Origin: Bdellovibrionota bacterium
Lineage (GTDB): Bacteria > Bdellovibrionota_C > UBA2361 > JBGSMV01
NCBI GenBank assembly: GCA_044356455.1
Contig: JBIKWF010000042.1
Coordinates: forward strand, 1 to 32,934
DNA: 32,934 nucleotides
Reading direction: 5' to 3'
Shown here: piece by piece, positions 6,355 to 23,111 of the stretch
How the letters are laid out: each line of letters begins with the position of its first letter
Numbering within the stretch: the stretch's first letter is position 1
The notes under the pieces: generated by a model
Database searches by the model: none
Told to the model about the DNA's origin: nothing
The model's input: the letters and a program-made list of their open reading frames with translations, nothing else
Made by a program: the position numbers and the translations under genes

Positions 6355-6867
6355 CTACTCTCCTAGTACCCGCTGCACGACACTAAGACTGGTCCCCGCG
6401 GCCACAACCTTCCCATTAGGATCCAAGACGAATAGTGCAGGGAGGCTATCCACGCCAAAGGCAACCTTAGCTTCGTCGTATACGCCATTACCCGAGTAAG
6501 AATGCTGCAAACCATCAAGCTTCCCATACGTGATGCGATCTTGGAGCTTGGGCAAGTCCTCGGCTTTATCAATGCTCACCGCAAGAAACACGATATCTTT
6601 GCGTGATGCGTTACGCTTCGCATACGCATTGAGTTCATTTACTACCGTATGCGACTGATTACATGAATTCGCCCAGAACAAGACCACCACGTTTTTCCCG
6701 CGAAGATGCTCAAGCACCAAGCGATCGCCTTCAAGCATATAGAAGGAGGTATAGGGGGGACTTTGATTCCCTAGAAGGGATGAACTTCCTGCCCCGGCAC
6801 ACCCTGAAAGCCCCACACTACTGGCCAAGCCCAAGCAAAGGAGCGCCTTAATAACATTCTTTCTCAT
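6355..6867 (-). CDS. TlpA/ResA-like thioredoxin-fold lipoprotein with a CxxS active site
   Basis: Lipobox LSGC; LRGKNVVVLFWANSCNQS; cis-Pro motif FGVDSLPALFVLDPNGKV. Confidence 0.8.
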   Translation of the reverse strand: MRKNVIKALLCLGLASSVGLSGCAGAGSSSLLGNQSPPYTSFYMLEGDRLVLEHLRGKNVVVLFWANSCNQSHTVVNELNAYAKRNASRKDIVFLAVSIDKAEDLPKLQDRITYGKLDGLQHSYSGNGVYDEAKVAFGVDSLPALFVLDPNGKVVAAGTSLSVVQRVLGE

Positions 6868-7002: not shown

Positions 7003-9495
7003 CTACTGATTAGCTGAGCGCTCGCGGATCATCCAGAAAGTGTCTTTGTAGGCTTGCTTCACCTCGGGGTCGGTCTCACGCTCAAAATTATCGATTATTA
7101 TTCTTAGCGCGCCGACGTCATTAAATCCCTCAAGGGCCTTTACCGCAAGCAGGCGAGCCCCCTTATCCTTGTGCCCCAGCATGCCGAGGAGCGTGCCCAG
7201 GTTAAGAGACTTTGGATACTTCTCAAGCACCAATTTGGTAAGAAACGGATCGTTTGATTGCACCAGCAGCGAAATGAGTTTTGGATCCTTAAGGACCGGC
7301 TCAAAAACACGGAAGGCTTCCCTCGCATCTTCATCAGGCACTTTGGAAAGATTCCCAAAGACCCCGATCGCATGGGCATATTTTACGCGGTTCTCCCAAG
7401 CATTACGCCGCACCCACTCCGCGAGCCCGGCACTAGGCTGAATACGCAAAGACTTTCCGACAAGCGTATCAAAGGCTTCGAGCAGCAACGCCTCGTCTTT
7501 CAGGTCTGCGCACATGAGAAGCAAAATGCGTTCAACTTCGACATCGAACCAGCGGCCGATAGCCCCAATATCCTCTGAAGTAAGGGATCCAGCTGCCGCT
7601 TTTACCAAGGCGTTGAGAACTTCTGGAGGAACATCTTGCCTATCGCGAACAATCGCTAAGTAATCCTGCCGGACGCCGGGGAGAATGCCTCTTTCGACAG
7701 CAAGGCTTGCAAAGGCACGCACGTTGTAATCGTTGCGTGTTCCCAAAACATCAAGTAACCAAAGCACGTCAGCATCAGGAAGCTCACTACGGCGCTGCAC
7801 CACGTCATCGCCAAACACGAGCGCCAACTCGGGGTGCACAAGAATGAGCCCAAGTGCAGATTTATCTGCCGCGGTCTCTAGCGCGAGCGAGTCTCCCACT
7901 AATTGGGCAAGGAGCGGTTGATATTCATTGACGTTTTGAGAATCAAGCGCGATTGAAGCCGCCATTCTTAAGGTCATGCGCGGATCGCTCACGTAGGCCT
8001 TGCGTAGTTCAGTTTGACGGGCCTCCAGGGGCAAGGTTGCGTTTAAAGACTTCATCAAGGGCTCATAGGCTGCGGGCACCACGCCCGATGGAATGGTGCG
8101 TAGCCATTGGTTTAGTTGCTCGGCGCTCCGCAGCATGCCAAGCCTTCGCACCCGCTGCACTAATGACTTCTCAGCAAGACCTCTTAGCTCGGGGGTCTTC
8201 GCGTCAAGGGAGCTCTTTACCAAAGCGACGTGTGCAAGAGGATCGTCAGAGGCCACAAGCTGATCAAATTGGGCGGCAGCTTGCACGAGCTGCGTCTGAC
8301 TATCTCCGATGGCGTCAACGGCCTTCTGGATCTCAGGATTTCCGCTGAGGGCGTCAGGCCGAGGAAGGCTTTCCTTATGCTCATCCTCGGGAGCTGAAGA
8401 GCGCGACGTGAGCTGAGCTCCGACGACTGCGGACACGATGAAAACAGCGACCACGGCGATGAGGAGCCGCATGCGCGAAAGCAGTCCGACTGGTGACGCT
8501 TCCTCCGTAGTGGACGAAGAAGTCGTCGCAGGCTGACCCACCGCGGTGCCGCGAATCATCCCACTAGAACGTACTCCTGTAGTAGCAGGACTTGCCGCGG
8601 CGGCAGTGGATTTTGTGGGAGTAGCCGCGGCCTTCTTTGAAGGAAGCCCGGCACCCGAAAAAGCCTTCTGGCGAGCTTCTGCGATTCCTTTGAGCAACTC
8701 CGCCGCTGAAGGATAACGATCCTTGGGATCAGAGCCCAAGCAGCGCATGAGCACCTCATCTGCCCAAAGCGGAGCACCTGGGACTAAATCAGAGAGCGGA
8801 AGAATCGGAGCGCCGGCGCCTCCAGGCCCCCCACCCTCTCCGAACGGAGATTTTCCAGAAAACAAATAGTAGCCAAGAACGCCGAGCGCAAAGACATCCG
8901 AGGCTGGCTCAAGCACTCCGCCATATTGCTCTGGCGCGACGTAGCGCACCGTCTCTAAAGAAGGAAGCATAGAGGTCGCTTGAGCGTCAGCATCAAACGC
9001 CCCAAGAGCCCCGACAAAAAGAATTTCACCCGCCCTGTCAACCCAATACGAGGAATGACAAAGATCTCCGCAGACCAGCCCACGTTGATGAATTGCTTCG
9101 ATAGAACGCACGCAGGCAATAAAACGCCGCTCCGCTTCAGCCAACATCGCTCGCCCGCCTTGAGCCGCTCCCGAACTCACCACGAGGCTATTTCCGTCCA
9201 GAGGCTTGAAGGCCGCGAAACCTACACCGGAACTATCAACGGCAAAATTGATCAGGTGCTGACCAACACTTGGAATCTGCTGCAGAGTACCTAGTCGAGC
9301 GAGAAATCTATCGACCGCCTCGGTGTGAAGCGGCAGTGGATGGCGCATCACCCACACCATGACCGGCTCTTCGCGAGAGCGGTCTACGGCCTTATGAAAA
9401 TCGGCGTTGCGCGTCGAAGCGAAGTGACCTTCGAGAGCGAAGTAATCACTCACAAGGCCCTTCACGTTCGCTGATTGTCTAATAAGATCTGACAT
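7003..9495 (-). CDS. membrane-anchored Hanks-type pseudokinase with large alpha-helical (HEAT/ARM-like) C-terminal domain
   Basis: Kinase C-lobe motifs YVAPEQ, SDVFALG, SGKSPF, DRYPSA; VAIK, HRDxxxxN and DFG motifs degenerate; TM LLIAVVAVFIVSAVVGA; Leu/Ala-rich helical C-terminal region ending in HEAT-like RLLAVKAL...ETDPEVK. Confidence 0.75.
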   Translation of the reverse strand: MSDLIRQSANVKGLVSDYFALEGHFASTRNADFHKAVDRSREEPVMVWVMRHPLPLHTEAVDRFLARLGTLQQIPSVGQHLINFAVDSSGVGFAAFKPLDGNSLVVSSGAAQGGRAMLAEAERRFIACVRSIEAIHQRGLVCGDLCHSSYWVDRAGEILFVGALGAFDADAQATSMLPSLETVRYVAPEQYGGVLEPASDVFALGVLGYYLFSGKSPFGEGGGPGGAGAPILPLSDLVPGAPLWADEVLMRCLGSDPKDRYPSAAELLKGIAEARQKAFSGAGLPSKKAAATPTKSTAAAASPATTGVRSSGMIRGTAVGQPATTSSSTTEEASPVGLLSRMRLLIAVVAVFIVSAVVGAQLTSRSSAPEDEHKESLPRPDALSGNPEIQKAVDAIGDSQTQLVQAAAQFDQLVASDDPLAHVALVKSSLDAKTPELRGLAEKSLVQRVRRLGMLRSAEQLNQWLRTIPSGVVPAAYEPLMKSLNATLPLEARQTELRKAYVSDPRMTLRMAASIALDSQNVNEYQPLLAQLVGDSLALETAADKSALGLILVHPELALVFGDDVVQRRSELPDADVLWLLDVLGTRNDYNVRAFASLAVERGILPGVRQDYLAIVRDRQDVPPEVLNALVKAAAGSLTSEDIGAIGRWFDVEVERILLLMCADLKDEALLLEAFDTLVGKSLRIQPSAGLAEWVRRNAWENRVKYAHAIGVFGNLSKVPDEDAREAFRVFEPVLKDPKLISLLVQSNDPFLTKLVLEKYPKSLNLGTLLGMLGHKDKGARLLAVKALEGFNDVGALRIIIDNFERETDPEVKQAYKDTFWMIRERSANQ

Positions 9496-9605
9496 TTACC
9501 TATCCTATAGCCCAAACTTTTGGGCCGCAAAAGCCTCAAATCTTGCAGCCGAACGCCCCCTCACCTGCTCTGCTCACCGCCCTCAAGCCTGCACGGCTGA
9601 GATAA

Positions 9606-11777
9606 TTACACCCGAATTGCACCCACCGGCTCCACTACCACTGAGGGCTCAAGCTCGTGATGGGCAACCACGGGAACCTCAAGGCTACACTGACGCAAGA
9701 ACGCAACAACGCGAGCCCTAAGCTCCGGCGCCACGAGCAATGAGATCTGACCTGTGCCGAAGCGCCGAATCGGCCCAAGCACTTCAGACAGCGCCCGAAG
9801 GAGTCGCTCTGCCTGGTCCGGCGCAATTCCTAGCGTCCCATTCGGAGAAACCGCAGGCGTCTCTGCGAGAAGCGCCTCAGCACTTTCGTGGAGAGTGACC
9901 ACTCGCAGGCTGCGCCTCAGCGACAATAAAGGCCCAAGAACATGTCGCCTGCGAGAGGCGCGGACAAAGGACACCACTTCTTCGAGATCAAATTCTCCAT
10001 CAGCGACAAGTGAGGCCCCCGTCGTTGAACAATAGGTCGCTACCGCCTCTATAATTTGCCGCGAATCCCGAATTCCCACCCCTTCACGCACCAGCTCTTG
10101 GAGCAGCTCAGCAAATCGCGCGGGAGTGAAGTAATCCCTATTCAAGGTTCGCGATAGCAGGCCCGGGAACCTCTTCTCCAACCGATTCTCTATCTCAATC
10201 ACTTCCGCGACAGATAAGACCTCTTCGGGGACACTTCTCAGAAACCCAGCCGTGCGAAGGGCGATGTACTGAAAATGATCATACGTCGCGACTCCCGCTG
10301 CCTCGAGCACTCGCCGCTGCGTTTCTGAAGCAGAAACCCAGACCACCGTACTTCCACCTGAAGGGTGCGGCACTTCTTCGAGTACCTCTAGCCCGAACTC
10401 AGAAGCCGCATGCGGGCTCACCTCCGCGAGCAATCCATCCGGTACGAGAGCTTCTTCCAAAACGAGGGTGCCGCGCACCGATACGCGGTAATAACAAAAA
10501 GAGGAAAGAGGATCGACTACTACACGCAGCGCAGGCAGCTGCAAACCAATCTCTTGAGCAAAATCTGCCTCAAGTTGCTGCCACCAAAGGCGGTAGCGGG
10601 CCTGATCTTCCTTGTATTTCTTATAGAGGTACGAACTATCAAGGGAGACCTTAAGAATGCTCGCTTCCTCCTGAGTCGAAGCGTCAAGGCCGAGCAGGAG
10701 CGATGAAGGTGCATCGGCAATGACGATAGAAGTCGCTGGCTGACGCGAAGCATTTGACGCGCCAGAGGGGCCTCTTTGCTGCCTCCAACCTAGGACGGCA
10801 AGAGCTCCGCCCACGACGAGAAAAGGCAAAGGAGGCAATCCAGGAACGAGTCCCATGGCCGCCACAATCGCGCCACCAAACATCACGGTACCTGGCCTTG
10901 CAAATAGCTGCGCCTGCACATCGGAGCCAAGCGAGGACCCTTCGCCGGACGAAACGCGCGTCACCACCATGCCTGCGCATATAGAAATGAGAATTGCCGG
11001 AATCTGGTGGACCAGCCCGTCGCCCACAGTCAGCGTGGTATAGGTGTTGACGGCCTCCGAGAACGAGCTTCCGCCGCTCATCCCGAGATAGATACCGGCG
11101 AGAATATTCACCGCAATAATAAAGAGTCCAGCGACCGCGTCGCCCTGCACAAACTTCATGGCGCCGTCCATAGAGCCGTACAGCTGAGACTCCTTCCTTA
11201 GATCTTCTCGGCGGCGCTGAGCGTCGCCGGGCGAAAGAAGCCCCGCTCGCACATCGGCATCAATTGCCATCTGCTTACCGGGAAGCGCATCAAGCGCAAA
11301 CCTGGCTGCTACCTCAGAGACACGCGCCGCTCCGCGAGCAACGACTATAAAATTAACCATGGTGAGAATGAGGAAGATGATAAGACCTACAACTATCTCC
11401 CCTCGAATCAAGAACGTTCCAAAGGCATGAATCACCTCTCCGGCCTCGCCCTGACTAAGGATCAGGCGCGTAGAGGCGACATTCAAACCAAGGCGAAAGA
11501 GAGTAGTGAGCAAAAGAATGCTCGGGAACGAGAGGAGTGCGAGCGCATTAGGCAGATAGAGACCTGCGAGAAGCAAAATCAGCGAAAACGAGATATTAAT
11601 AACGAGTAGAAAATCGAGCAGCAAGGTCGGCAGAGGCACGAGCAACATTGCCGTGATCGAGATCAGAAATGCGGCTAAGAGGATATCACTGGCCCGTGCG
11701 GTGCGAATCATAATCGGTTCTTTCTCAGACGCAGACGAAGCTCCTCTATTGTAGGCTCCCCTGGCGTTTCGCACCAT
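9606..11777 (-). CDS. sctV: type III secretion export gate protein, SctV/FlhA (FHIPEP) family
   Basis: FPSILLLTTLFRLGLNVASTRLIL, RVSEVAARFALDALPGKQMAIDAD, YGSMDGAMKFVQGDA, LTVGDGLVHQIPA, LVREGVGIRD; alternative start at 11711 (MIRTAR). SctV versus FlhA cannot be settled without phylogeny. Confidence 0.93.
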   Translation of the reverse strand: MVRNARGAYNRGASSASEKEPIMIRTARASDILLAAFLISITAMLLVPLPTLLLDFLLVINISFSLILLLAGLYLPNALALLSFPSILLLTTLFRLGLNVASTRLILSQGEAGEVIHAFGTFLIRGEIVVGLIIFLILTMVNFIVVARGAARVSEVAARFALDALPGKQMAIDADVRAGLLSPGDAQRRREDLRKESQLYGSMDGAMKFVQGDAVAGLFIIAVNILAGIYLGMSGGSSFSEAVNTYTTLTVGDGLVHQIPAILISICAGMVVTRVSSGEGSSLGSDVQAQLFARPGTVMFGGAIVAAMGLVPGLPPLPFLVVGGALAVLGWRQQRGPSGASNASRQPATSIVIADAPSSLLLGLDASTQEEASILKVSLDSSYLYKKYKEDQARYRLWWQQLEADFAQEIGLQLPALRVVVDPLSSFCYYRVSVRGTLVLEEALVPDGLLAEVSPHAASEFGLEVLEEVPHPSGGSTVVWVSASETQRRVLEAAGVATYDHFQYIALRTAGFLRSVPEEVLSVAEVIEIENRLEKRFPGLLSRTLNRDYFTPARFAELLQELVREGVGIRDSRQIIEAVATYCSTTGASLVADGEFDLEEVVSFVRASRRRHVLGPLLSLRRSLRVVTLHESAEALLAETPAVSPNGTLGIAPDQAERLLRALSEVLGPIRRFGTGQISLLVAPELRARVVAFLRQCSLEVPVVAHHELEPSVVVEPVGAIRV

Positions 11778-11883
11778 CTCCCATGAAAATTCTACAAGAC
11801 CTTTTCGTGGTACCGGAAACGATAGGAGACGTACCGTCGCCCCTCAACGCGCAAGAAGGCACCTACCTGCCCTGCCCAAGGGG

Positions 11884-12813
11884 CTACTGCCCACCGAAGG
11901 CCAACAGCAACTGCGTTCCAAAGCCAATCGTGAAGATAAGCATAAATCCAACGAACACTAGCCCCACCGGTCCGGTCGCCTCAAGCTCGAGTCGCTTAAT
12001 CTTGGCTTCGACCTTCGTCTCTCTCTGGGACGAGACGGCGTCAGCAAGCTCTTGGAGCTGCTTCGTGATCTCACCACCATGCTTCGAAACTTGTGACAGC
12101 GACATGAACGTATGCTTGAGCTCGTTATGCCCCGAGAGTTTTCCGACTTCCATAAGCGACTCTGAGAGCGAGAGTCCCGACTTACTCAGAAGCTGCGCAT
12201 GACGAAGGAGCTCCGTCACGGGGTTGTGGCTATCTCGCTCATCAGACATTTGCACTACTCGCTGCAAACATGGCCCAATATCCAGCGAACTACTCACACC
12301 GATAACAATTTGCTCTACCACAAGAGGGAGATAGAACAGAATGTCCTCGCTGCGCTGCTTAATACGTCTATCAAGAATTGAAAAGGGCAACTGCACACCG
12401 AGCAGAACACCGAAGATGAGACCAAATATGGCGAAAGTCGATCCCGCCGAAACTAAGGAGAGGCCTAACACCAAGGGCAGAACGATCGGGGCAATCAGGC
12501 GAATCTGCCCAAACTGCTTACGCTCCTGCTCCGTAAACATACCAGCATGAAAGAAGCGCTCCTGCATCGTAACCGGAGCTTTGCCTTTTATCTTCTTCTT
12601 TGCGGCGGATTTGGCCGCTTCAAAATCCTCTTCCGCATTACCGGTACGTGTTCTGGTTCTTGAATCTGATTGAGAGAAGGACGACGTTCCTCCTGACATC
12701 ATGGCGCGCAGATTCGTCTGTCTCCGCGGGAACACCACGAAGTAGAGCAAAAAGGCGCCCGAGAGAAAGGCTCCCATGATTGCTACTAATCCAATGACCG
12801 CTCCTGAGCTCAT
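11884..12813 (-). CDS. tadC: Tad pilus inner-membrane platform protein TadC (T2SSF family)
   Basis: N-terminal TM, two central TMs, RRIKQRSEDILFYLP, GGEITKQLQELA, C-terminal TM; follows tadB. Confidence 0.85.
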   Translation of the reverse strand: MSSGAVIGLVAIMGAFLSGAFLLYFVVFPRRQTNLRAMMSGGTSSFSQSDSRTRTRTGNAEEDFEAAKSAAKKKIKGKAPVTMQERFFHAGMFTEQERKQFGQIRLIAPIVLPLVLGLSLVSAGSTFAIFGLIFGVLLGVQLPFSILDRRIKQRSEDILFYLPLVVEQIVIGVSSSLDIGPCLQRVVQMSDERDSHNPVTELLRHAQLLSKSGLSLSESLMEVGKLSGHNELKHTFMSLSQVSKHGGEITKQLQELADAVSSQRETKVEAKIKRLELEATGPVGLVFVGFMLIFTIGFGTQLLLAFGGQ

Positions 12814-12871
12814 ATATCCTTAAACCTTTGCCGCGCTACGCGCTCCCTGTCGTGACCAACTTGCCTTGCCC

Positions 12872-13843
12872 TCACACTCGAATCTTTGTTACCTGCCGCA
12901 CCCAGAAGATTCCGAGCAGAATGACGCAAATACCAACCTGCCATACCTGCCACCCGGTTTCATCATTCAGTCCCGCCATGATCATATCGGGGTACATCAG
13001 ATACATATAAAATTGCATAGCACAGAGCATAAAGATGATGATCCAAATGGATCCGCGCTGCATACCTACGGCCGAAACGGCAGCGCTACGGAAGTACTGG
13101 CGTTTACGCACTTGTTTCGCGAGACGCTCGAGCGTGTCAGAAAGCGTTCCACCGACGCGCCGACTAAGAAGCAGCGCCTGCACAAAAAGCTCAATCTCGG
13201 GATGGTAGACATCTTCCCCAAATGCACCGATCGATTTGTCTTCAGACACTCCAAAGCGGAGGCGCTCAATCATCATCTCGACCTCTTCTCGCACGAGAGA
13301 ATCAGGCTCAAGACCTTGAGCCGCAGCTTCTAGCCCCTGCACAGGATTCATACCTGTCTTGAGCAGTCCCACGAGCGAAAGCAAAAACTGGGGGTAGTCT
13401 ACGTCAAAGCGCTTCATGCGTTTTTCAAGCTTAGAGTTCACGAGCCAGCGCATAAATAAGGGGCCCGTAAGGAGCGACATGAGCTGAAGAATGATGTTCA
13501 TGTACATACTCACGACAATAAAGGCGAGTATGCTGATACCTACTTCTAAGCTATGAAAGGCCACAACAGGAATAGGAAGCTGCGCGAACTTGAGGCGCTT
13601 CTTGATCGTCAATTTTGATGAGGTAACTTTTTTCTCTGAGCTGATAGCCGTAAGCGCGTCGGGCTTGCCTTCTTTCCCAGTCGCCCGATCGTCCATTGAA
13701 TTAAGGCGCTGCGAAGACGCCATCATTCCGCGGTAGTTTCCGGTGAGGCCAGTTTTGCGACCACCGCCGCCTAAAAGGATCACGAGCGCGAGGAGTGCCA
13801 CCGCTGCGACTACCACTAAGAGGATCAACAGCCCTGTACTCAC
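12872..13843 (-). CDS. tadB: Tad pilus inner-membrane platform protein TadB
   Basis: GTG start with GGAGAG RBS; RFDVDYPQFL..LKTG, RRVGGTLSDTLERLA, two C-terminal TMs; follows tadA. Confidence 0.88.
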   Translation of the reverse strand: MSTGLLILLVVVAAVALLALVILLGGGGRKTGLTGNYRGMMASSQRLNSMDDRATGKEGKPDALTAISSEKKVTSSKLTIKKRLKFAQLPIPVVAFHSLEVGISILAFIVVSMYMNIILQLMSLLTGPLFMRWLVNSKLEKRMKRFDVDYPQFLLSLVGLLKTGMNPVQGLEAAAQGLEPDSLVREEVEMMIERLRFGVSEDKSIGAFGEDVYHPEIELFVQALLLSRRVGGTLSDTLERLAKQVRKRQYFRSAAVSAVGMQRGSIWIIIFMLCAMQFYMYLMYPDMIMAGLNDETGWQVWQVGICVILLGIFWVRQVTKIRV

Positions 13844-13854
13844 AAGCTCTCTCC

Positions 13855-15402
13855 TTAGCGCCTACTACCCGCCTTCGCGGAAGTCTGCTGCTCGTTAATA
13901 TTACCAAAACCAATTTCTGGCGGAGAGTCTCCAAGCCGAATTCCGTTGGCTTCAAGAATCTCCTCAAATGAACTTGTCCAAGAATCTACGCGCCAGAGTG
14001 GACGTTCACCCGTTCTGCAAATCGAAAACATCGGGCGCACTTGGATCTGCCCCTCAACAAAGTGGCCGACCTCCACAATCTCTCCCACGCGCGGCTTGCC
14101 GAGCCCCTTTTCACGGAACATCCAAATAACTACATCAACGGCAAGTGCAATTTGCTGGCGAATAATATCGATAGCTACTGATTTTTGGGCTCGTCCGAGT
14201 AAGCTCTCAAGACGCACCAGTGTCTCGCGCGCGTTACGCGCATGCACCGTAGTCATTCCAACGTGACCTGTCTGAGCACTTTCAAGAAACGCCTCGGCCG
14301 AGAAGGGCGTTCTCATTTCTCCGAGAATAACGCGCGTGGGCGTCATACGAAGCGTGGTCTTAATATGCTCTTGTAGAGTGACCTCACCGATTCCTTCGAT
14401 ATTCGGAGGTCTCGACACCAGCGAGCGGAAATAAGGATGGCTGAAGTTAACTTCAGGCGTGTCCTCGACCGCCACAATCGACTCATCGGGTCCAAATTGC
14501 GTCCCAAGGCACTTCACGAGTGTCGTTTTACCTGTTCCCGTTTCTCCCGCCACGATTACGGTGACGTGACCACTGCGCATGAGCGCGGCGAGATATTGCA
14601 CGATAAAGGGCGGAGCCACTTGATAGGTGACCAAGCTCTCAAGCGTCACCTCCATGATGCGCGGCACGCGGATACAAAGCAGCGGACCGCGAGTACCGCA
14701 CACACTTTCATGGATGGCGCAAATACGAATACCGTTGGGGAAAGATCCGTCCACCGTGTGTTGCTGAGTGGAGAGTGATTTCCCAAGTCGCAAAAGTAGT
14801 CGGTCAAGAAAGGCTCCATATGCTTGGGCATTGGGCCAATGAAGTCCGGTGGTTTCACTTACTTTACCGCGCTGGAGCACTACCGTCTGGTAGTCATACA
14901 CATGGATATCGGTAACTTCTTTGTTATCAATCAAAGGCTGGAGCACGCCCCACCCCATCAGATCTTTCTGAAGCGCGATAATGACGTGCGCGCGCTCAAG
15001 ATCGTCTATGGCTTCTGATCGCTTTCGAAGCACCCGATCAACCGCGGCAGCAATTGAGGATTCTGCGATATTTACTGTGCCGTCAGCATTATTAAGATTG
15101 AACTCACTTCCTAACTCACGACGAGCCTCTCGCAGAATCGTACTTGCCAGAGGAGAAAGCTTTCCACGCGTAGCTGCGGTCTGACGCGCAGCTGTTCCTT
15201 GCGTTGCGCTTGCAGGAGCTTGAGAAGTTGCGCGCGTCGTTACGGCATTTGTTGAGGTAGCGCCCGCATTGGAGCCTTGTCCGGGCGCATTCGCACGTTC
15301 GGGGCCACTCGCACCGCCTCGCGTGCTTCCGCGCGTGGAGAACAGACCCATCAAAGAGTCTTTATCGCCACCTGAGCCGCCATTATCCGAACCGCTGGCC
15401 AT
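13855..15402 (-). CDS. tadA: Tad pilus assembly ATPase TadA/CpaF
   Basis: GWGVLQPLIDNKEVTDI, Walker A GETGTGKT, Asp box VEDTPE, LRMTPTRVILGEMR, His box GHVGMTTVHA. Confidence 0.93.
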   Translation of the reverse strand: MASGSDNGGSGGDKDSLMGLFSTRGSTRGGASGPERANAPGQGSNAGATSTNAVTTRATSQAPASATQGTAARQTAATRGKLSPLASTILREARRELGSEFNLNNADGTVNIAESSIAAAVDRVLRKRSEAIDDLERAHVIIALQKDLMGWGVLQPLIDNKEVTDIHVYDYQTVVLQRGKVSETTGLHWPNAQAYGAFLDRLLLRLGKSLSTQQHTVDGSFPNGIRICAIHESVCGTRGPLLCIRVPRIMEVTLESLVTYQVAPPFIVQYLAALMRSGHVTVIVAGETGTGKTTLVKCLGTQFGPDESIVAVEDTPEVNFSHPYFRSLVSRPPNIEGIGEVTLQEHIKTTLRMTPTRVILGEMRTPFSAEAFLESAQTGHVGMTTVHARNARETLVRLESLLGRAQKSVAIDIIRQQIALAVDVVIWMFREKGLGKPRVGEIVEVGHFVEGQIQVRPMFSICRTGERPLWRVDSWTSSFEEILEANGIRLGDSPPEIGFGNINEQQTSAKAGSRR

Positions 15403-15462
15403 CTAAAACCTCACAAGCTAAAACCCTGACGAGCTAAAAGCTTCGCGTCATTTCAGCGCTCC

Positions 15463-15478
15463 CTGATATCAATATCAG
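15463..15478. promoter_or_regulatory. palindrome upstream of tadA
   Basis: CTGATAT-CA-ATATCAG (7-2-7) about 60 nt upstream of the tadA start. Confidence 0.3.
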
Positions 15479-15589
15479 AAGTAGCCCTGCGGACTCCGCG
15501 CCTCAAAGAAGCACGAAGCACCTTGTTAACCTCTTTCGTAACCAGCCGCCTCGTACCGGCGCGGCATGAATGAAGCCCTGCGGCTTCGA

Positions 15590-16471
15590 CTACTGGGCGG
15601 ACTCAGGAACAAGCCTTCCGCCTGGCTTCACACAATAACGTGTACCCGCCATAACCACCGAGCCTTGACAATCGCTGACTGGTCCCGCGGAATTTTGCGT
15701 TCCAAGCAGGTCATCAACGGTCAGTATCGCAGATTCATTGCTTGACTTCACGTCGGTATCACCGCGCAGCTGCAAGGTGATGCTGCCCTGAGTAACGGCA
15801 AGACTTATGCGCGCCGCATCCTCAGATGAAACAAGTAAGGTAACCGTTGACGGCACCGCAGCTCCAGGCTGCTGTGAATTTTGAGTCTGCCGCTCTGCCG
15901 AAAGTACTCGGGCGTTTTGAACGATACGTGTAATACCGCCTCGACCGCGCACACTGGAGATCCACATCACGTCAACGCGCGCTCCCGGACGAACCCAGCC
16001 TTCTACGGCACTGCGTGCATCTACAGAAATGGTAATGGCACGATAGCCTTCGGGAATACTTGCAGTAATCGCACTGGTGGGCTTCACACTCGTCATGAAG
16101 TCACGGTGCAGGGGCTGGCCCCCAAGAATGAGAGACCTTGAGAACTGGCCCTTTAATTCTTCAAAATCAACCACGACGCGCGGCGATACGCCAACTTGAG
16201 GGCGCGATTCTTTTCTAAAGAGGGTCGGATCGAGCTGAATACCCGCCTCGATATCGCGAGCTGGCACAAGCACATCGATCATTTTAACCGGTGGCTCTTG
16301 AGGTGCTTCCGCAAGTTTTGGTGGTTCCGAGATGGGAGCCGACGCCCCGGCGTAGATTGCTAGAAATGCGATCGCGAGACAGGTGACGATAAGGAACACA
16401 CCAACCACGACCATTATACGGGTCCGGTCTGTGTGACGCGACGCTCCTATTGTTCCAAAGTGCCTTGACAT
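15590..16471 (-). CDS. cpaB: Flp pilus assembly protein CpaB/RcpC
   Basis: N-terminal TM, SAF-like VLVPARDIEAG, IPEGYRAITISVD..SAVEGWVRPGARVDV, VTLLVS, ITLQLRG. Confidence 0.92.
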   Translation of the reverse strand: MSRHFGTIGASRHTDRTRIMVVVGVFLIVTCLAIAFLAIYAGASAPISEPPKLAEAPQEPPVKMIDVLVPARDIEAGIQLDPTLFRKESRPQVGVSPRVVVDFEELKGQFSRSLILGGQPLHRDFMTSVKPTSAITASIPEGYRAITISVDARSAVEGWVRPGARVDVMWISSVRGRGGITRIVQNARVLSAERQTQNSQQPGAAVPSTVTLLVSSEDAARISLAVTQGSITLQLRGDTDVKSSNESAILTVDDLLGTQNSAGPVSDCQGSVVMAGTRYCVKPGGRLVPESAQ

Positions 16472-16822
16472 ACTCCCCCGCCGAACTAATTCGACTGCGA
16501 CTAACCTACTTACAACCTTTCGAGAACTCTCGAATGGCTCAAGTAATCTTAGCGTCGCCGAAAGGAGCAGCTAACCGTCCAATAAACTCCCAACCGGCAA
16601 CTCTTAGACATTCATGTGCTCGAAATATCCACGAAAAATTTCGCGGCCACTCCTGCTCGATGAACATCGAAGAACGAAAAGAAACTTCCTTCTCGCCTTG
16701 AAAATTACCCCTCAAGAACTTCCGTCACGCACGAAACTTCCGCGAATAACCAAGCTCAAGACACCACTTCTTACAAAACCTTCCCCGCCAAGGCAGCGAG
16801 TGCTCTATTCAATACTCGACTG

Positions 16823-16922
16823 AAAAGAGCGCCCTTTCGGGCAGTGACTTGCTCCTTTGGGGAGCAAGTCACTCTAACTCCGGAAGCAGATCAAAAGATT
16901 GCTCTTTTTATCCACCTGCCGG
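16823..16922 (-). terminator. three stacked hairpins in the flp 3' region (terminator or mRNA stabiliser)
   Basis: On the minus strand: long imperfect stem capped by AAAAGA-GCAA-TCTTTT; perfect 13-bp stem AGTGACTTGCTCC/GGAGCAAGTCACT (16843-16873); GCCC-GAAA-GGGC followed by GCTCTTTT. Confidence 0.7.
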
Positions 16923-16939
16923 CTAAACCCTAACCAAAA

Positions 16940-17131
16940 CTAGCTGGTAGCTAGGATGGTAGCATTAAGAGCCGAGAACTTGCCGGAGATTGTCGTTCCG
17001 AAAATTCTCAGAACGGCAACTGCCGCCAGTGCGATTAGCGTTACGAGGAGGATGTACTCCACGAAAGTCGCTGCCCGCTCCTTCTTACTATTCTTCTCGA
17101 CCGAAACTTCAGATTTCTTCAGTTCATTCAT
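16940..17131 (-). CDS. flp: Flp family type IVb/c pilin
   Basis: 63 aa, charged leader, ERA/ATFVEYILLVTLIALAAVAVL..FG...SGKF; strong GGAGG RBS. Confidence 0.9.
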   Translation of the reverse strand: MNELKKSEVSVEKNSKKERAATFVEYILLVTLIALAAVAVLRIFGTTISGKFSALNATILATS

Positions 17132-17431
17132 ACTAATTTCCTCCAGTTCAGGAACAAACCCTCGTGTGAATCTCCTAATGCGACAAAGGCCAGCATCTAA
17201 GTTCGACTAAAACTCGACTTACCAAAGCGGTTCTGGAGAGTATCAGCCCGATATCCACCTAAGGATTTCGAGAAAAATTCGCCAAAAACACAGGTAACAC
17301 TCTGAATCGTCAGGCCAAACCCGTTAGACAAGCTCTATAGAGCAGTCAGAGATCACACTCCTATTGAGACACTACCGCTTCAAGAATCTACCGCAAGATT
17401 CAAATCGACCAGATACTAGAAAACTTTAGTA

Positions 17432-17448
17432 GGCAATTTACGGGCCAA
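17432..17448 (-). promoter_or_regulatory. candidate sigma54 (-24/-12) promoter for flp
   Basis: Minus strand TTGGCCCGTAAATTGCC matches TGGC-N7-TTGC with exact GG-N10-GC spacing; intergenic and oriented toward flp. Confidence 0.55.
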
Positions 17449-17456
17449 CTGGCGTT

Positions 17457-18758
17457 CTATTTCTGCCCGATAAGGGGAACCTCTTTCGAAGTGCCGGGAG
17501 CCTCCGCTTTTTGGCCCCCGCTACGTCCAAAAAGGCGACTTAGCCAGCCACCACCGCCCCCCGAACCACTTGCCGCCCCTTCTTGGTCACCAGCCTTGGG
17601 GTCAATGACCCCAAGTTCTCGGGCAATGGCTTCAAGCTTATCACGGGTGCCTTTTTGCCCCATGCTGTAGAGGGTTCGCCCACTACCAGGCCACAAGGCG
17701 GCCTTGGGGTCATTGGGGACCGGAGGAAGACGCCACGGAGCCTCCCCTAGATGATGAGCAGGCTCGAGCTCGGCCATAATCTGGTCTACCCCAAGCAGGG
17801 CTCCGGAGTACGGGTTCACAAGAAACATAAGCCTATCGGTGCTGCCGACCAGCGTTTTCACAAAGGTCAGGTACAGATCGACGGCGGTGAGCCCAAGAAT
17901 AGTGTCATCTATGACAATAAGCACCACATCGGCCATGCGCATGATGGTGCCAGTGGCGGGCCCGAGCCTTCCACCGGTATCTATCACCACTACATCAAAG
18001 AGCACACGCGAGAGCTCGACGACGCGCTGGGCGATGGTCATGCCATCAGTGTGACAGACCAAGTCCATCGATTCCGCCATGCGATCAGGCGGCATGAGTA
18101 CAGAAACTTCTGTGCTGATGGGAATCACTGCATCACGCAAAGACTCGCGAGAGATCTCGCGCGATCCATTGACCCAAGCGCTTACCACTTTAGCTTCAAC
18201 GCCGTTCACGGTAAGTGAGCGGCTCAAATCGCGGGTCTCAACGTCCAGGTCCCATAACAGGGTCCTACGATTATACACGCTGCACACCTCCCCAAGAGCA
18301 GCAGCGATCGAAGTTGCACCAACTCCGCCCTTAGCGTGCGTTACCGCAATAACGCGTCCTTCTCTTGTTCTCCCCTCTCTTCTGAACTCGGCATGAATCG
18401 CAACAAGCTCCTGGAGAAAGTCGAGAGGACTTGCACTGTCAGGGAATACCTTTCGCACACCTGCTGAGTGCGCCGTTCGGAATGCACCGCCGCCGTATGC
18501 CTCGTCGGTGACGAACATGACGATGTGAAGCCAAGGCGCTACCGCAAGGGCTTGACGAGCGAGAGCAACGGCACGGTCTCCAAGACCAGAGCCCAGCACC
18601 AGCACATCCGCCTCAGCTATCCGCTCAGCAGCCTCACGCTCCGCCACAAGCTTGACTTTTAGATCAAGCATCTCCATGTCGGCCTGATTAAAAGCCTCGA
18701 TGCGCTTTGCGCAAAAAGCTTGGGCCTCTGTTGTGTTGTCGACAATAAGTAGCTTCAT
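17457..18758 (-). CDS. cpaE: CpaE/TadZ-like pilus localisation protein (pseudo-receiver plus MinD/ParA-like ATPase)
   Basis: MKLLIVD receiver start with Gly at the phospho-Asp position (VLVLG); deviant Walker A KGGVGAT; LWDLD; FDVVVIDTG; C-terminal amphipathic GGWLSRLFGR. Confidence 0.85.
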   Translation of the reverse strand: MKLLIVDNTTEAQAFCAKRIEAFNQADMEMLDLKVKLVAEREAAERIAEADVLVLGSGLGDRAVALARQALAVAPWLHIVMFVTDEAYGGGAFRTAHSAGVRKVFPDSASPLDFLQELVAIHAEFRREGRTREGRVIAVTHAKGGVGATSIAAALGEVCSVYNRRTLLWDLDVETRDLSRSLTVNGVEAKVVSAWVNGSREISRESLRDAVIPISTEVSVLMPPDRMAESMDLVCHTDGMTIAQRVVELSRVLFDVVVIDTGGRLGPATGTIMRMADVVLIVIDDTILGLTAVDLYLTFVKTLVGSTDRLMFLVNPYSGALLGVDQIMAELEPAHHLGEAPWRLPPVPNDPKAALWPGSGRTLYSMGQKGTRDKLEAIARELGVIDPKAGDQEGAASGSGGGGGWLSRLFGRSGGQKAEAPGTSKEVPLIGQK

Positions 18759-18832
18759 TGCTTCCTTGAGAGGTGATTGTTTGGCCCCTCTTATTTAAGT
18801 CATCCTAACCAATTAGAATTCTTGCCACAATC

Positions 18833-20494
18833 TCACTTATTCTTCGGTGCTCCCGCAGCTCTTGGTGCTCCCCCACTACCCGCGGGCACCCCGCGGTTAG
18901 CCTGCCCTGGCGCTTCCATAGGAATCGGAGCTGGTATGTCAGCTGACTCTACTACCGTACGCACTTCAGGAGCCCCACGACTGAGGAGCTGAGGCGCAAA
19001 AATCTTAAGCAGAGCAAATCCGACGCCAATTCCAATTACAATAGCTACCAGCAGCGTGACGACATCAACCCACAAAGAGCGCGATCCCTGGTCAAGCTCT
19101 TGAGACAGCTTACGCATGCGGTCAGAGGTAATCCCCCCGGAGGGAATCTTCACCACCGGAGATACTCGAACCTCACGATCCCAAGTATCCGTTATTACAT
19201 TAGGAGACGAAAGCATGGGCTCCATACGTATGGGCTCATGAATCGTCTCGCCGTGATCATGATCGCTATAATGTTGAGCAATATTATTAATCTCAGTGTC
19301 GGAGGAAATGCGCGGCTCAAGGGCGGACTGACGCGGCGGCGGATTCCCTTGCCCTTGCTGCCTGCGCGCTTCACGTTCCCACGAATACCGGCCCGGACGC
19401 TCCGAACCATTACGGTCAATCGATGTTTGAACCTGCCCATCATCAAAAGGGGTGGCCACAATGCTACTCGGCTCAGCGCCAAGTCCCGGAGCAATAAAGG
19501 CACCCGGCCCTGCCCCCAACGCGATTGGGCCCGGCGCAACGGGGCCGCGGGCAGGCGCCGCATTCACTGAAGAAGACGCTTTCGTGCCAGGAGAGACTAC
19601 GGGCCCGCTTTGTGCAGGATGATCGGCCCCCGCAGTCGCCACCACTTCCGGCATAAATCGCGCGAGGTCGTCGTACATCTCCATCGCTGATTGATAGCGC
19701 AGCTCAACCTCGCGGTGCATAGCCCGAAGTATAATTTTATCGAGCTCCGGAGGGCATTCCGGCCGTAGCGCACTCGGCAACACCGGATCTGCCTTCAGAC
19801 GCTTGGTCATGGTTGCGTATACGCTGTCGCCGCGGAACGGCGATTCGCCGGTCACCATTTCATAGGCAAGAATCCCAAGTGCGTAGATATCTGAACGCCA
19901 GTCGACCTGCGCATTCAGCATATATTCGGGGCTCACGTAATCTATGGTGCCCACTACTCCGCCGTGCTCGGTCAGTTTGGGACCGTGCCCCATGCGAGCA
20001 ATACCAAAGTCAGCTATTTTGATTTGGCCTTCTTTTGAGATCAAAATATTCTCGGGCTTCATGTCGCGGTGCACGATGCCAGCCCGGTGAATCGCTTGTA
20101 CTCCCAAGCACATCTGGCTGAGCAGCCTCACGGTCTCTTGAATCGGAGGAAGCTGGTCTCGGTTTCCAAGGCGATCCGCCAAGTCCCCACCGCCGACATA
20201 CTCCATGGCATACGCGACGAGATCCCCGTCACGAATATACTCATAGGCACGCACCACGTTAGGATGCGAGACACTGTAAGAAGCCACTACTTCATTCATG
20301 AAACGCTGAGAGGCAACTTTGTCCTGGGCAACTTCGGGGAAAAGCACCTTGAGCGCAAAGAGATGCCCCTGCAGCTCGCGATGCCGGCATGCGTACACGA
20401 GTCCCATACTGCCCTGACCAAGGCACTTCACAACCTCATAGCGGCCGGCAATCACCGTCCCAGGTTGTAAACTTATGAGATGTTCGTCAGCCAT
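18833..20494 (-). CDS. membrane-anchored Hanks-type Ser/Thr protein kinase
   Basis: GQGSMG, ALKVL, HRDMKPEN, DFG, GTIDYVSPE, SDIYALG all intact; long disordered linker; TM near the C-terminus. Confidence 0.95.
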   Translation of the reverse strand: MADEHLISLQPGTVIAGRYEVVKCLGQGSMGLVYACRHRELQGHLFALKVLFPEVAQDKVASQRFMNEVVASYSVSHPNVVRAYEYIRDGDLVAYAMEYVGGGDLADRLGNRDQLPPIQETVRLLSQMCLGVQAIHRAGIVHRDMKPENILISKEGQIKIADFGIARMGHGPKLTEHGGVVGTIDYVSPEYMLNAQVDWRSDIYALGILAYEMVTGESPFRGDSVYATMTKRLKADPVLPSALRPECPPELDKIILRAMHREVELRYQSAMEMYDDLARFMPEVVATAGADHPAQSGPVVSPGTKASSSVNAAPARGPVAPGPIALGAGPGAFIAPGLGAEPSSIVATPFDDGQVQTSIDRNGSERPGRYSWEREARRQQGQGNPPPRQSALEPRISSDTEINNIAQHYSDHDHGETIHEPIRMEPMLSSPNVITDTWDREVRVSPVVKIPSGGITSDRMRKLSQELDQGSRSLWVDVVTLLVAIVIGIGVGFALLKIFAPQLLSRGAPEVRTVVESADIPAPIPMEAPGQANRGVPAGSGGAPRAAGAPKNK

Positions 20495-20547
20495 TACGCA
20501 CTCGTCTCTGAAATCGCCCTACTGCCTTACCTGAGGACTTCTTGCGT

Positions 20548-21327
20548 CTACGCCTTACGAGGAAGCAGGCAGACCGTAAATTTTCGCTCCCCGAACGCAA
20601 CTTCATCACCGTGCTCAACATTGGACTTGTCACCGGAGAGGTTCACTATGTCTCCCCCGTTAATTCTGGTGATAGTAGTTCCGTGTTCTGACAACTGGTC
20701 GAGAATCTGTATCGCCCCGTCCTCGCCAATACGCACGATGGCGTGCATCGAGGAAACAGTGCCGTCCTCAAGGAAGAGAAAATTACCGCCCGAAGGCATT
20801 TCAGAGGTAACAATCAATCGACCACTTCGAAGAGGGAAGATTTCACCATTTGGATCGCGATCATACGTTACAAGAATCCCCACCAAGGCCGAAGACTTCT
20901 TCCACTCAATGACGTCCCCCTCGGGCGCAGGCTGCGCGGCCACCGGCGCGCGCGGAGCGGGGCCTGCGGATCGACCTACCGGAGGAGGAGCTTCAACTGG
21001 CCTGCGCGCCTCTTGATACGAACCGCCCTGTGAAGCGGGGTGGGACGCTGGCGCAATTGGCGAAGAACGCGGTCTATCCGGCGGCGCTTCAACGGCAGGC
21101 CTGCGCGGCGATGCCGAGACGAAGCCACCACTTGAGCGCCCTGCATCAGGCATTCCTGAAAGCGCGGGAGAAGGGTCGAGCTCTTTAGCCAGACGCGCCC
21201 GCACTTGACCTGTTATCTCTGGGGTCAGCATCACGGTGCGGTTACGAGCCCTAGGAGCATGTTCGACTTCTGCTTCCGCCTCATCACCGCCTTCGTCCCC
21301 GAATTCGAGGTTCTTATCATTGTCCAT
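20548..21327 (-). CDS. FHA domain protein with disordered N-terminal region
   Basis: C-terminal FHA-like LEDGTVSSMHA..ILDQLSEHGT..HGDEVAFG; ATG at 21327 chosen for its GAGGAG RBS. Confidence 0.8.
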   Translation of the reverse strand: MDNDKNLEFGDEGGDEAEAEVEHAPRARNRTVMLTPEITGQVRARLAKELDPSPALSGMPDAGRSSGGFVSASPRRPAVEAPPDRPRSSPIAPASHPASQGGSYQEARRPVEAPPPVGRSAGPAPRAPVAAQPAPEGDVIEWKKSSALVGILVTYDRDPNGEIFPLRSGRLIVTSEMPSGGNFLFLEDGTVSSMHAIVRIGEDGAIQILDQLSEHGTTITRINGGDIVNLSGDKSNVEHGDEVAFGERKFTVCLLPRKA

Positions 21328-21357
21328 GGATTCGCTCCTCAAAACCTATCAACGTAC

Positions 21358-22326
21358 CTACTGACCAACCCCAAACGTCATGACCCCTACTACGGTAAGC
21401 AGGGCCGCCAATACGGACAGCACCGCCACAATCGCAAGAGTACGCCACAAACTTCTTCCTGAATTCGCTTGATTCGCGCGAGGCCGCTTGCGCTCGAGCG
21501 CTTTGCGCGGATCGTACCCCGCAGGCGGCTCTTGTTTCAGTTGTCCGCCAAGGGGAATAATCGCTACTGAGATATTATCGTAACCCCCACGCGCCTTCGC
21601 GAGTTCAACGAGTTTTACGCATGCGCCTTGCGGAGTGTCATCGGTCACAATAGTCGCAACTTCGGTCTCGCTTACTTGACTATAGAGGCCATCAGTACAA
21701 AGCACTAAGAGATCCGGCGTTTCACCAGCCGTCGTTTCGCAGACCCAGTACTGCTGCAAGGAAACTTCAAGCGCTGGTTCGGATCCGATAGCCCGGGTGA
21801 GAATGTGCGCTTGAGGATGCGCAAGCGCCTCCTCAGGCTTGATGTGCCCTTTCTCGACCAGTTCTTGCACATACGTATGATCGGTAGTGAGCTGCTGAAT
21901 CGCTCCATCGCGAATAAGATACGCGCGAGAATCGCCGACATGCGCGATGACCACCTCGGGGCCATCAAACATAGCCCCCACAATGGTGGTGCCCATTTGA
22001 GCAAACGCTTGATTTTGGCGGCGAAGTACAATGACTCGGTTCGCTTCAAGGACCGCGTTCCTTAAGGCCTCTTCCGCCGGACGCGGGGGTAAATTCTCAA
22101 GATCGCGGCGAATGGCATCAATCGCAAGTTGCGCAGCGAGTTCTCCCCCAGTGGCGCCGCCCATGCCGTCGCAGACAAGCCACGCGAGCCCAGAGGGGGA
22201 CTCAACCACGGCGTAGCGGTCTTCATTGAGGTCGCGCTCACATCCCGTATCGGTGATGGCCGCGGGGATGCTGCGGTCGCCCGCCTCCCCATCCGTCCCC
22301 CGTTTCTCCGTCTGCCCGAGCAACAT
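21358..22326 (-). CDS. PP2C/PPM-family Ser/Thr phosphatase (Stp1/PrpC-like) with C-terminal TM
   Basis: TDTG..R..NED, VCDGMGG, MGTT, HVGDSRAY, DHT, ILTRAIG, LCTDGL, GGYDNISV; C-terminal hydrophobic helix. Confidence 0.95.
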   Translation of the reverse strand: MLLGQTEKRGTDGEAGDRSIPAAITDTGCERDLNEDRYAVVESPSGLAWLVCDGMGGATGGELAAQLAIDAIRRDLENLPPRPAEEALRNAVLEANRVIVLRRQNQAFAQMGTTIVGAMFDGPEVVIAHVGDSRAYLIRDGAIQQLTTDHTYVQELVEKGHIKPEEALAHPQAHILTRAIGSEPALEVSLQQYWVCETTAGETPDLLVLCTDGLYSQVSETEVATIVTDDTPQGACVKLVELAKARGGYDNISVAIIPLGGQLKQEPPAGYDPRKALERKRPRANQANSGRSLWRTLAIVAVLSVLAALLTVVGVMTFGVGQ

Positions 22327-22613: not shown

Positions 22614-23069
22614 CTATTCCGTCTTCCCCACGGGACGCAGCTCAAAAAGAAACTCCCTGCTCTCAGGGGTAAGGCGAGATTCAAAGCCCTGCTTCGCAAT
22701 CCAGCTGGCAAGTTCGACCCAGCCTTCTTTGTGTAAGGTATATTCTTGCCACTTATCTCCACGGTGCTCGCGCAAGGGAAACCCCGCATCCGTCCATTTC
22801 TTCTTAATATTTTGAAATCGCCCACCGACCACACTTCGCAGCCGTGACAGGGACTCAACCCCAGTCCACTCCCCGCGGCTCACCGCAGCGGGCGCCTCCG
22901 CGGCCACCCCCACGGAGCATCTAAGAGCCTCGACGAACTCCGCAACCAGTGCAGGCTCACGCTCGCGCAGGGCGTGCTGCACGGAGCGCACCATTACTTC
23001 CTCAAGCTGCTCATCGATGAGACGCGCGACTTCTGCATCAAGCGCGCCTTCAGTCATTGTTTTTTTCAT
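22614..23069 (-). CDS. hypothetical protein
   Basis: 151-aa ORF with AGGGGA RBS, 42 nt downstream of the hybrid kinase and co-oriented; no recognised motif. Confidence 0.65.
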   Translation of the reverse strand: MKKTMTEGALDAEVARLIDEQLEEVMVRSVQHALREREPALVAEFVEALRCSVGVAAEAPAAVSRGEWTGVESLSRLRSVVGGRFQNIKKKWTDAGFPLREHRGDKWQEYTLHKEGWVELASWIAKQGFESRLTPESREFLFELRPVGKTE

Positions 23070-23111
23070 AAGTCCCCTACACTCACGGTCGCAAAACTCC
23101 CTTGAAAGAAC

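Follow-up and report, generated by a model that had tools for sequence, protein, structure and literature searches.

A type III export-gate gene within a conserved Tad pilus locus of Bdellovibrionota

Why does a Tad pilus locus carry a T3SS (type III secretion system) gate gene, and do the two machines work together? The question is raised by a 32,934-nucleotide (nt) stretch of DNA (the window; contig JBIKWF010000042.1 of assembly GCA_044356455.1, forward strand) from a Bdellovibrionota bacterium. Its minus strand carries eleven genes at 7003..22326, in the order PP2C-FHA-kinase-cpaE-flp-cpaB-tadA-tadB-tadC-sctV-pseudokinase. The initial annotation of the window had read this run as a candidate hybrid machine that may couple a Tad pilus to an orphan SctV. 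Family profiles and open reading frames (ORFs) confirmed all eleven genes, their strand, and their order. The gap between tadC and sctV is 106 nt to the first ATG and 172 nt if sctV starts at residue 23 (11711), the likelier start; about 100 nt had been claimed. A scan of the 23 main ORFs in the window gave no match to any further T3SS or flagellar family, which also agrees with that annotation. The term orphan holds for the window only. The genome encodes three export gates, and the partners of this SctV lie on contigs C24 and C95.

The locus is a real, lineage-defining variant of the pairing of a Tad pilus with a needle-less T3SS. We lean toward a reading in which the pair forms one kinase-controlled, coupled export device, like Kil and T3SS* of Myxococcus. 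The evidence is the gene content and order, the linkage across the lineage, an intact SctV of its own clade, a partner gate, and the fact that neither a Tad secretin nor SctC was detected. On this evidence, the two machines, which are known to act together only when Myxococcus kills prey, may work here as one device.

Linkage of sctV to the Tad genes and to its partners

We searched 60 relatives from the same order and took the best sctV locus for 53 of them; the other 7 had no full-length orthologue listed. tadC lies immediately 5' of sctV in 51 of the 53 loci, and the remaining 2 end at contig edges. The pseudokinase gene lies directly 3' of sctV in 48 loci. It is cut off by contig ends in 4 and has moved in 1. 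The tadC-sctV adjacency is also present in 19 of 20 loci of other orders, the exception being genome G061. The gaps range from -11 to 570 nt (median, 54); 13 of 51 are at most 15 nt, and in 4 loci the genes abut or overlap. A search of the phylum covered 124 genomes, all of one class, which we take to be GTDB UBA2361. The pseudokinase was found in 117 of them. Named homologues carry the NCBI labels Bdellovibrionota, Oligoflexia, Deltaproteobacteria, or Ca. Dadabacteria.

As a control, no tadA, tadB, tadC, cpaB, or cpaE gene was found near any of 77 other sctV loci. Likewise, a check of 80 sctV/flhA loci from metagenomes found no tadB or tadC gene nearby; at two of them, a partial ATPase match lay 9-10 kb away. 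The metagenome scan gave no locus of this lineage. The tadC-sctV arrangement is far beyond chance. Because related genomes are not independent, the counts show one stable ancestral arrangement and not repeated origins. The initial annotation named loss of the tadC-sctV adjacency in relatives among the findings that would count against coupling, and the survey found the adjacency conserved.

A TadC-SctV fusion was considered and rejected for the two loci read, L161 and L165 (G040 and G052), in which a single in-frame TGA parts the genes. Open frames of 1,024-1,059 amino acids (aa) occur in six genomes, namely these two and G095, G098, G101, and G108, which were flagged only. Read-through of the TGA in L161 and L165 would yield a fusion, and the rate of such frames is compatible with chance.

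The source genome (G000) is 93% complete. It contains three sctV/flhA genes, three sctR/fliP genes, two FliI/SctN genes, and two secretin genes. Locating its sct, fli, and tad genes, as the initial annotation had proposed, yielded a flagellar gate, the B/C and D systems, and a second Tad locus. The flagellar gate is on C110 and C16, and its FlhA scores 844 bits against TIGR01398. System D holds the partners of the Tad-linked SctV. On C24 it encodes a triple-FHA membrane protein, a zinc-ribbon-type FHA protein, SctJ, a 73-aa protein, and SctQ. On C95 it encodes SctR, SctS, an SctT-like protein, a truncated SctU (U'), an 85-aa protein, and a TPR protein. An sctL-sctN pair is unlinked on C112. 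FHA genes number one in the window and two or three in the partner cluster. The 73-aa gene was considered as a FliG remnant and had no Pfam or Atlas support. The 85-aa gene was considered as SctX and had no profile match; the comparison sets were unannotated and noisy.

The two halves are joined in other genomes. G005 (L196) contains the unbroken run sctV-pseudokinase-FHA3-FHA-J-76aa-Q-R-S-T-U'-83aa-TPR. The same pseudokinase/partner junction occurs in four more genomes of its family, by sequence or coordinates. In other orders, D-type sctQ lies 8.5-10.4 kb 3' of tadC on the same strand in 12 of the 22 genomes with both matches, a linkage that rests on coordinates. Among the other 10, tadC is too near a contig end in six, two are on contigs without a stated length, and two (G061 and G084) look split. 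The D cluster (J, Q, R, S, T, U', and TPR) is intact in 17 of 19 loci. From these gene orders, we conclude that the ancestral locus was one Tad-T3SS superoperon, of which the window run is the Tad half. The order of the superoperon would have been PP2C-FHA-kinase-cpaE-flp-cpaB-tadA-tadB-tadC-sctV-pseudokinase-FHA3-FHA-sctJ-73aa-sctQ-sctR-S-T-U'-85aa-TPR. It appears to have broken after the pseudokinase gene in most of this order, with sctV left beside tadC. We take it to be ancestral because it is still continuous in a single family of this order and in 12 of 22 genomes from other orders. Genetic coupling of tadC and sctV is strongly supported by the adjacency across the lineage, the short or overlapping gaps, and the deeper relatives in which the run continues into sctJ-Q-R-S-T-U.

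The export gate and the parts around it

The window SctV (9606..11777, minus strand; 723 aa) covers the whole FHIPEP model (PF00771, residues 41-712). It scores 558 bits against TIGR01399 (SctV) and 515 bits against TIGR01398 (FlhA), both below the cut-off, which is 772 for FlhA. Its structure model has a pLDDT of 87.5, and the cytoplasmic domain matches the solved domains of FlhA, CdsV, and SctV-C with TM-scores of 0.72-0.84. We built trees of 69 and 39 rows under LG+G4, with no mixture model and with five FlhA rows; four degenerate SctV sequences of family f26 were left out. The Tad-linked SctV of all orders form one clade (100/99). It stands apart from the five FlhA (100/100) and from the clade of Myxococcota, Chlamydia, and proteobacterial SctV (100/99). 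Joining it to the lineage's FlhA was rejected by the approximately unbiased (AU) test (p=0.0008). Joining it to the Archangium/Corallococcus SctV was also rejected (AU p=0.0002); these rows may stand for either of the two Myxococcus T3SS. Joining it to the C paralogue was not rejected (p=0.49). With five FlhA rows, the basal position of the clade received low support (64/13).

The initial annotation had allowed that the gene might group with ordinary flagellar FlhA whose partners are scattered. The phylogeny did not bear this out, and the gene persists where flagellar gate genes are gone. Four genomes that are 91-97% complete and have no flagellar flhA or fliP keep the Tad-linked sctV. Judged by its sequence, the window SctV is an intact, non-flagellar protein of its own clade. 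Genome G042 (one contig; 82% complete) keeps the Tad-linked sctV and the D-type sctR, and no C-type sctV or B-type sctR was found in it. It also has no FliI, so part of the genome is missing.

Mapped through Escherichia coli FlhA, residues R85, R94, N137, R147, R154, D199, D208, D249, and Q254 are invariant in all 47 SctV of the order. These nine, like D158 and K203, are proton-path and pore-ring residues of a 2026 export-apparatus structure (bioRxiv 2026.06.13.732081), and D208 is also treated in PMC3139655. D158 is Asp or Glu in the order, and K203 is Lys or Arg in 43 of the 47. Compared with a same-genus copy, 61% of the codons for identical residues are silently changed and 37% of the residues are changed. 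By this comparison, SctV keeps its proton-path residues.

No Tad secretin (RcpA/CpaC) was found in G000. Its only secretins are GspD and PilQ, each in its own operon, and it has no third one such as the short Kil-type KilC. Among 38 genomes, secretin matches number two in 33, one in four, and three in one. The RcpA N-domain (PF13629) was over the cut-off in none of 39 genomes; the Caulobacter control matched, and a very divergent secretin could be missed. SctC was not detected. The locus contains no RcpA, TadD, TadV, or TadEFG gene. Only one A24 peptidase is encoded in the genome (C138). The second Tad locus includes a TadG-like gene, and six further pilin-like ORFs are scattered outside it. 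The needle protein SctF was not found with PF09392 in any of 39 genomes, a search in which no positive control matched. The contiguous locus L196 contains no needle-like gene, and no SctD-like protein with a periplasmic part was found in the cluster. Genomes of this order typically encode two FliI/SctN; three ATPases are encoded in 16 of the 26 genomes from other orders. A match named SctN next to a B cluster (L207; 32% match, 418 aa) is probably Rho.

Comparison with known systems and competing readings

Kil and T3SS* of Myxococcus xanthus (PMC8460266, PMC12075869, PMC10433427) share much with this locus. Both have a Tad core (ATPase, two platform proteins, CpaB, and Flp) and several associated FHA proteins. 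Both pair it with a T3SS that has the SctRSTUV gate, SctJ, SctQ, and TPR proteins (chaperones in Myxococcus) and no SctC or other secretin of its own. The Myxococcus loci are separate, whereas here there is one operon with sctV directly 3' of tadC. Kil has the secretin KilC and the FHA-fused ATPase KilF. Here, TadA has no FHA domain, CpaE is separate, and no Tad secretin was found. The SctV here lies outside the Archangium/Corallococcus clade and outside that of the Myxococcales, the gate has no M-loop, and SctU is truncated. A membrane pseudokinase is a fixed member here, unlike in Kil/T3SS*.

TadZ, TadA, TadB, TadC, RcpC, and Flp are common to this locus and the canonical Tad/Flp (type IVc) pilus, as in Caulobacter Cpa and Pseudomonas Tad; the parts listed above as missing from the locus set it apart. 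The Tad pilus of Bdellovibrio bacteriovorus has RcpA and a TadZ-TadA fusion, and the preprint on it (bioRxiv 2026.07.08.737194) mentions a T3SS 0 times. With non-flagellar T3SS, including the secretin-less "Myxo" form (Abby and Rocha 2012, PMC3459982), the locus shares homologues of SctV, R, S, T, U, J, and Q and the lack of a secretin. It differs in its separate deep SctV clade, in having no SctC and no SctN in the locus, and in an SctU without a cytoplasmic domain. A canonical injectisome has SctC, a full-length self-cleaving SctU, and the SctR methionine gasket, and none of these was found. The link between Tad and T3SS given in PMC3459982 is a rhizobial T3SS that borrows a Tad secretin only. 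With flagellar FlhA, FlhB, and FliPQR, the locus shares the full FlhA-family fold and the proton path. It differs in that the genome's own flagellar gate is separate and sctV is kept in aflagellate relatives. By TIGR01398 score, tree position, and co-occurrence with flagellar genes, the window SctV does not qualify as a flagellar FlhA.

In our literature search, which extended to neither subscription papers nor supplements, no paper was found that describes tadC and sctV as linked. Kil-T3SS* cooperation and delivery by a needle-less, secretin-less T3SS are stated as open questions (PMC12075869, PMC10433427, PMC12428579), and according to one review, Kil and T3SS* seem to occur together in Cystobacterineae only. 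Finding sctV hard-wired 3' of tadC in a second lineage, with SctV of a different clade, suggests that the pairing evolved twice. The locus names candidate coupling parts in one compact set, namely, SctV, the pseudokinase, the FHA proteins, and the TadA tail. It adds a deep branch to T3SS evolution and a natural gate without the near-universal methionine seal. It also gives a first mechanistic hint on the lifestyle of an uncultured phylum-level group.

If the two machines form a coupled device, both halves would be expressed and assembled together at one inner-membrane site. The kinase/PP2C pair, with the pseudokinase as sensor or scaffold, would set phospho-threonine docking sites for the FHA proteins. 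This signalling would recruit them and co-assemble both halves. TadA, TadB, and TadC would push an Flp filament out by way of the CpaB ring. Driven by protons, the SctV ring would act with the remodelled SctRSTU' gate to move proteins across the inner membrane into the periplasm. From there the pilus, standing in for a needle, would take them outward, probably by way of a PilQ or GspD secretin that it borrows. Since CpaB and SctJ build separate rings, the two machines would probably be placed next to each other. In Myxococcus, recruitment of T3SS* depends on Kil, FHA proteins are encoded in the Kil locus, and pilus tips have been proposed to replace the needle (PMC12075869, PMC8460266). By analogy, contact-dependent attack on or attachment to other cells is the likeliest use; predation specifically is a tentative suggestion, somewhat less likely than not. 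The genetic coupling proposed by the initial annotation stood. Its further proposals of physical linkage, co-transcription, a phosphorylation trigger, contact dependence, and predation are kept here as suggestions.

A stronger form of the coupled device is rather doubtful. It would be a single chimeric nanomachine, ancestral to the whole phylum. In it, a proton-driven type III gate of independent origin would have exchanged its needle for the Tad motor and Flp filament, and its seal and switch would have been remodelled so as to hand over to the pilus. A phospho-threonine signal would set off its assembly, and it would pass through a borrowed secretin and attack other cells; in part of the lineage, SctN might also have been replaced. 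That TadA replaces SctN is a tentative idea. The ATPase counts of this order make it attractive, but a third SctN exists in other orders, and the two are about equally near to the G000 enzyme (44.6 versus 46.1%).

Several observations weigh against a coupled device, and they fall into those on linkage and those on the gate. In most of the order, the sctJ-Q-R-S-T-U half has moved off the Tad half, and in G000 itself it is split between C24 and C95. In G041 (L198), the D-type RSTU genes lie beside the C cluster, which has another sctV, in divergent orientation. tadC lies apart in G061 (1.2 Mb), with sctV and the pseudokinase gene kept together elsewhere. The pseudokinase gene is apart from sctV in G007, and the tadC-sctQ link is probably broken in G084. 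The tadC-sctV spacer contains a weak terminator-like hairpin, at chance level; the whole promoter and terminator scan was at chance level (promoters, 6 versus 7.4; terminators, 26 versus 19.1). These genes could encode two separate machines that share an operon because both are needed at one stage of life and answer to a single Ser/Thr switch, while being coupled neither physically nor mechanistically. We regard this as quite unlikely. The T3SS half can indeed move off while all genes persist, RcpC forms its own dodecameric conduit (PMC12307814), and Myxococcus Kil assembles without T3SS* (PMC12075869). However, in all 51 informative loci of the order, the break in the operon left sctV beside tadC and the pseudokinase gene and not beside sctRSTU. 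Retention beside tadC is hard to explain by co-regulation alone.

The points on the gate concern whether it still exports. None of 19 D-type SctR has an M-loop with at least two Met, versus 20 of 22 B-type sequences; one further D sequence has no readable motif. The first and last Met of this loop are 99% conserved in FliP, and the loop is said to be required if export is to be sealed and coupled (PMC8239009). In each of the 11 D rows aligned, D-type SctU stops short of the coupling linker, with the linker and C-domain lost; this linker is described as coupling FlhA to gate opening (bioRxiv 2026.06.13.732081). On these alignments, the partner gate is remodelled, its methionine seal lost and its SctU cut short. 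Q254 is missing from all 12 SctV of other orders. In family f26 (L278, L280, L281, and L282), SctV is degenerate, with 574-685 aa and proton-path residues lost (R85, D208, and D249 in most of the 4 sequences). The FHIPEP loop is retained, and sctV still sits between tadC and the pseudokinase gene; D-type sctQ was not found in any of 6 f26 genomes. The order has one non-flagellar sctN for two gates. FliI/SctN was not found in G024, G035, G038, and G042, of which G024 and G035 are 94-97% complete with two non-flagellar gates.

Such losses would fit a repurposed gate, in which SctV and RSTU' no longer export and serve the Tad pilus as a ring scaffold, ion conduit, or signal relay. Through the pseudokinase, pilus assembly might then be coupled to the flow of protons or to contact at the envelope. 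The absent M-loop, the shortened SctU, the two nearly complete genomes without sctN, and the f26 loci speak for it. So does D-type SctT, which is barely alignable (hhalign probability, 3%; E, 0.013) and is assigned by position and a weak profile match. We hold it to be unlikely. The J, Q, R, S, T, U', and TPR set is kept together in nearly all D loci, and the TPR protein is similar to the product of the gene beside sctV in injectisomes of proteobacteria (hhalign, 94%), though TPR likeness is generic. In the lineage's own working flagellar FliP, the M-loop likewise holds a single Met, so export need not stop when the motif is lost. It is very improbable that sctV is instead a relic in decay, or a flagellar or injectisome gene of the ordinary scattered kind whose position was frozen by accident. 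The branches are long, degeneration is seen in f26 and G086, and with five FlhA rows the tree is compatible with an origin near the base of FlhA. Against this stand the separate, complete flagellar gate on C110 and the rejected joining to it, the gene's persistence in aflagellate genomes, the invariant functional residues, and the near-universal pseudokinase.

Other genes of the window and genome

The remaining genes of the run are all on the minus strand. The first encodes a PP2C (Stp1-type) Ser/Thr phosphatase with a C-terminal hydrophobic segment by hydropathy (21358..22326; PF13672/PF00481; NF033484, 228.9 bits against a cut-off of 230). It is present in 31 of 53 relatives' loci, many of which are cut short. 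The FHA-domain protein (20548..21342; PF00498) has a disordered N terminus and a C-terminal FHA domain. By tblastn, its gene is a paralogue of the FHA gene in the C24 partner cluster. The PknB-like Ser/Thr kinase (18833..20494; PF00069, E 5e-52) has intact catalytic motifs, a membrane anchor near 471-489, and a short outer tail by motifs and hydropathy. CpaE/TadZ (17457..18758; PF13614, TIGR03815) is ParA-MinD-like and is the best-conserved product of the locus (median identity, 75%). The Flp pilin (16940..17131; 63 aa) matches PF04964 below the cut-off (E 1e-6), and among 42 informative loci, 35 have a flp gene between cpaE and tadA. The residue ahead of the cleavage site in the window Flp is Ala instead of Gly; in a second, near-identical copy on C174, it is Gly.

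The CpaB/RcpC periplasmic alignment protein (15590..16471) scores over the TIGR03177 cut-off and matches PF16976. The TadA/CpaF ATPase (13855..15402; PF00437, TIGR03819) has CpaF as its nearest solved relative. Its otherwise variable N-terminal tail contains a short conserved Ser/Thr motif (residues 19-24), possibly a phospho-site or docking peptide. TadB (12872..13843) and TadC (11884..12813) are inner-membrane platform proteins (PF00482). The pseudokinase (7003..9495; 830 aa) has a PknB-like kinase fold without the catalytic Lys and DFG Asp, one transmembrane segment (337-363), and a large all-helical, HEAT-like outer domain.

Two features flank the eleven genes. A TlpA/thioredoxin-like probable lipoprotein (6355..6867, minus strand; PF13905) is the usual last gene of the run (33 of 53 loci). 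Genes for a 151-aa protein and a 758-aa membrane protein with a receiver domain (22614..25388, minus strand) are often first (14 and 15 of 53 loci). Just 3' of the operon, 137-6199 of the minus strand encodes a 2,020-aa reprolysin-like metallopeptidase with Ig and Fn3 domains, which was not seen there in relatives. On the plus strand, 26353-29201 contains two tandem sigma-54-activator-like genes whose ORFs overlap by 169 nt; the first matches in the receiver-side and lid regions only. A 381-aa protein with RTX calcium-binding repeats is encoded at 31065-32210 of the minus strand.

Elsewhere in G000, fliF on C16 (L137) is followed directly by fliH, with no fliG between. A divergent sigma-factor gene pair often follows the TPR gene of the D cluster (L196-L204; C117 in G000) and may regulate that cluster. 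The second secretin-less T3SS (B/C) lies at C127:35025-42000 (L131) and C7:16000-22000 (L130), with relatives at L216-L255. On C127 it comprises fliO-like, R, S, T, and split U genes; on C7 it comprises sigma, J, Q, a 618-aa sctV, and TPR genes. Its gene orders are fliO-like-R-S-T-U(N)-GAF histidine kinase-U(C)-FHA and sigma-J-Q-short sctV-TPR, and the large sensor kinase is wedged between the sctU halves in most loci. The second Tad locus (C19:3480-11900; L139) contains cpaE-flp-cpaB-tadA-B-C-tadG-like and no secretin gene, and a second tadC-like match is usual across the class. Lone cpaB genes lie on C79, C121, and C156.

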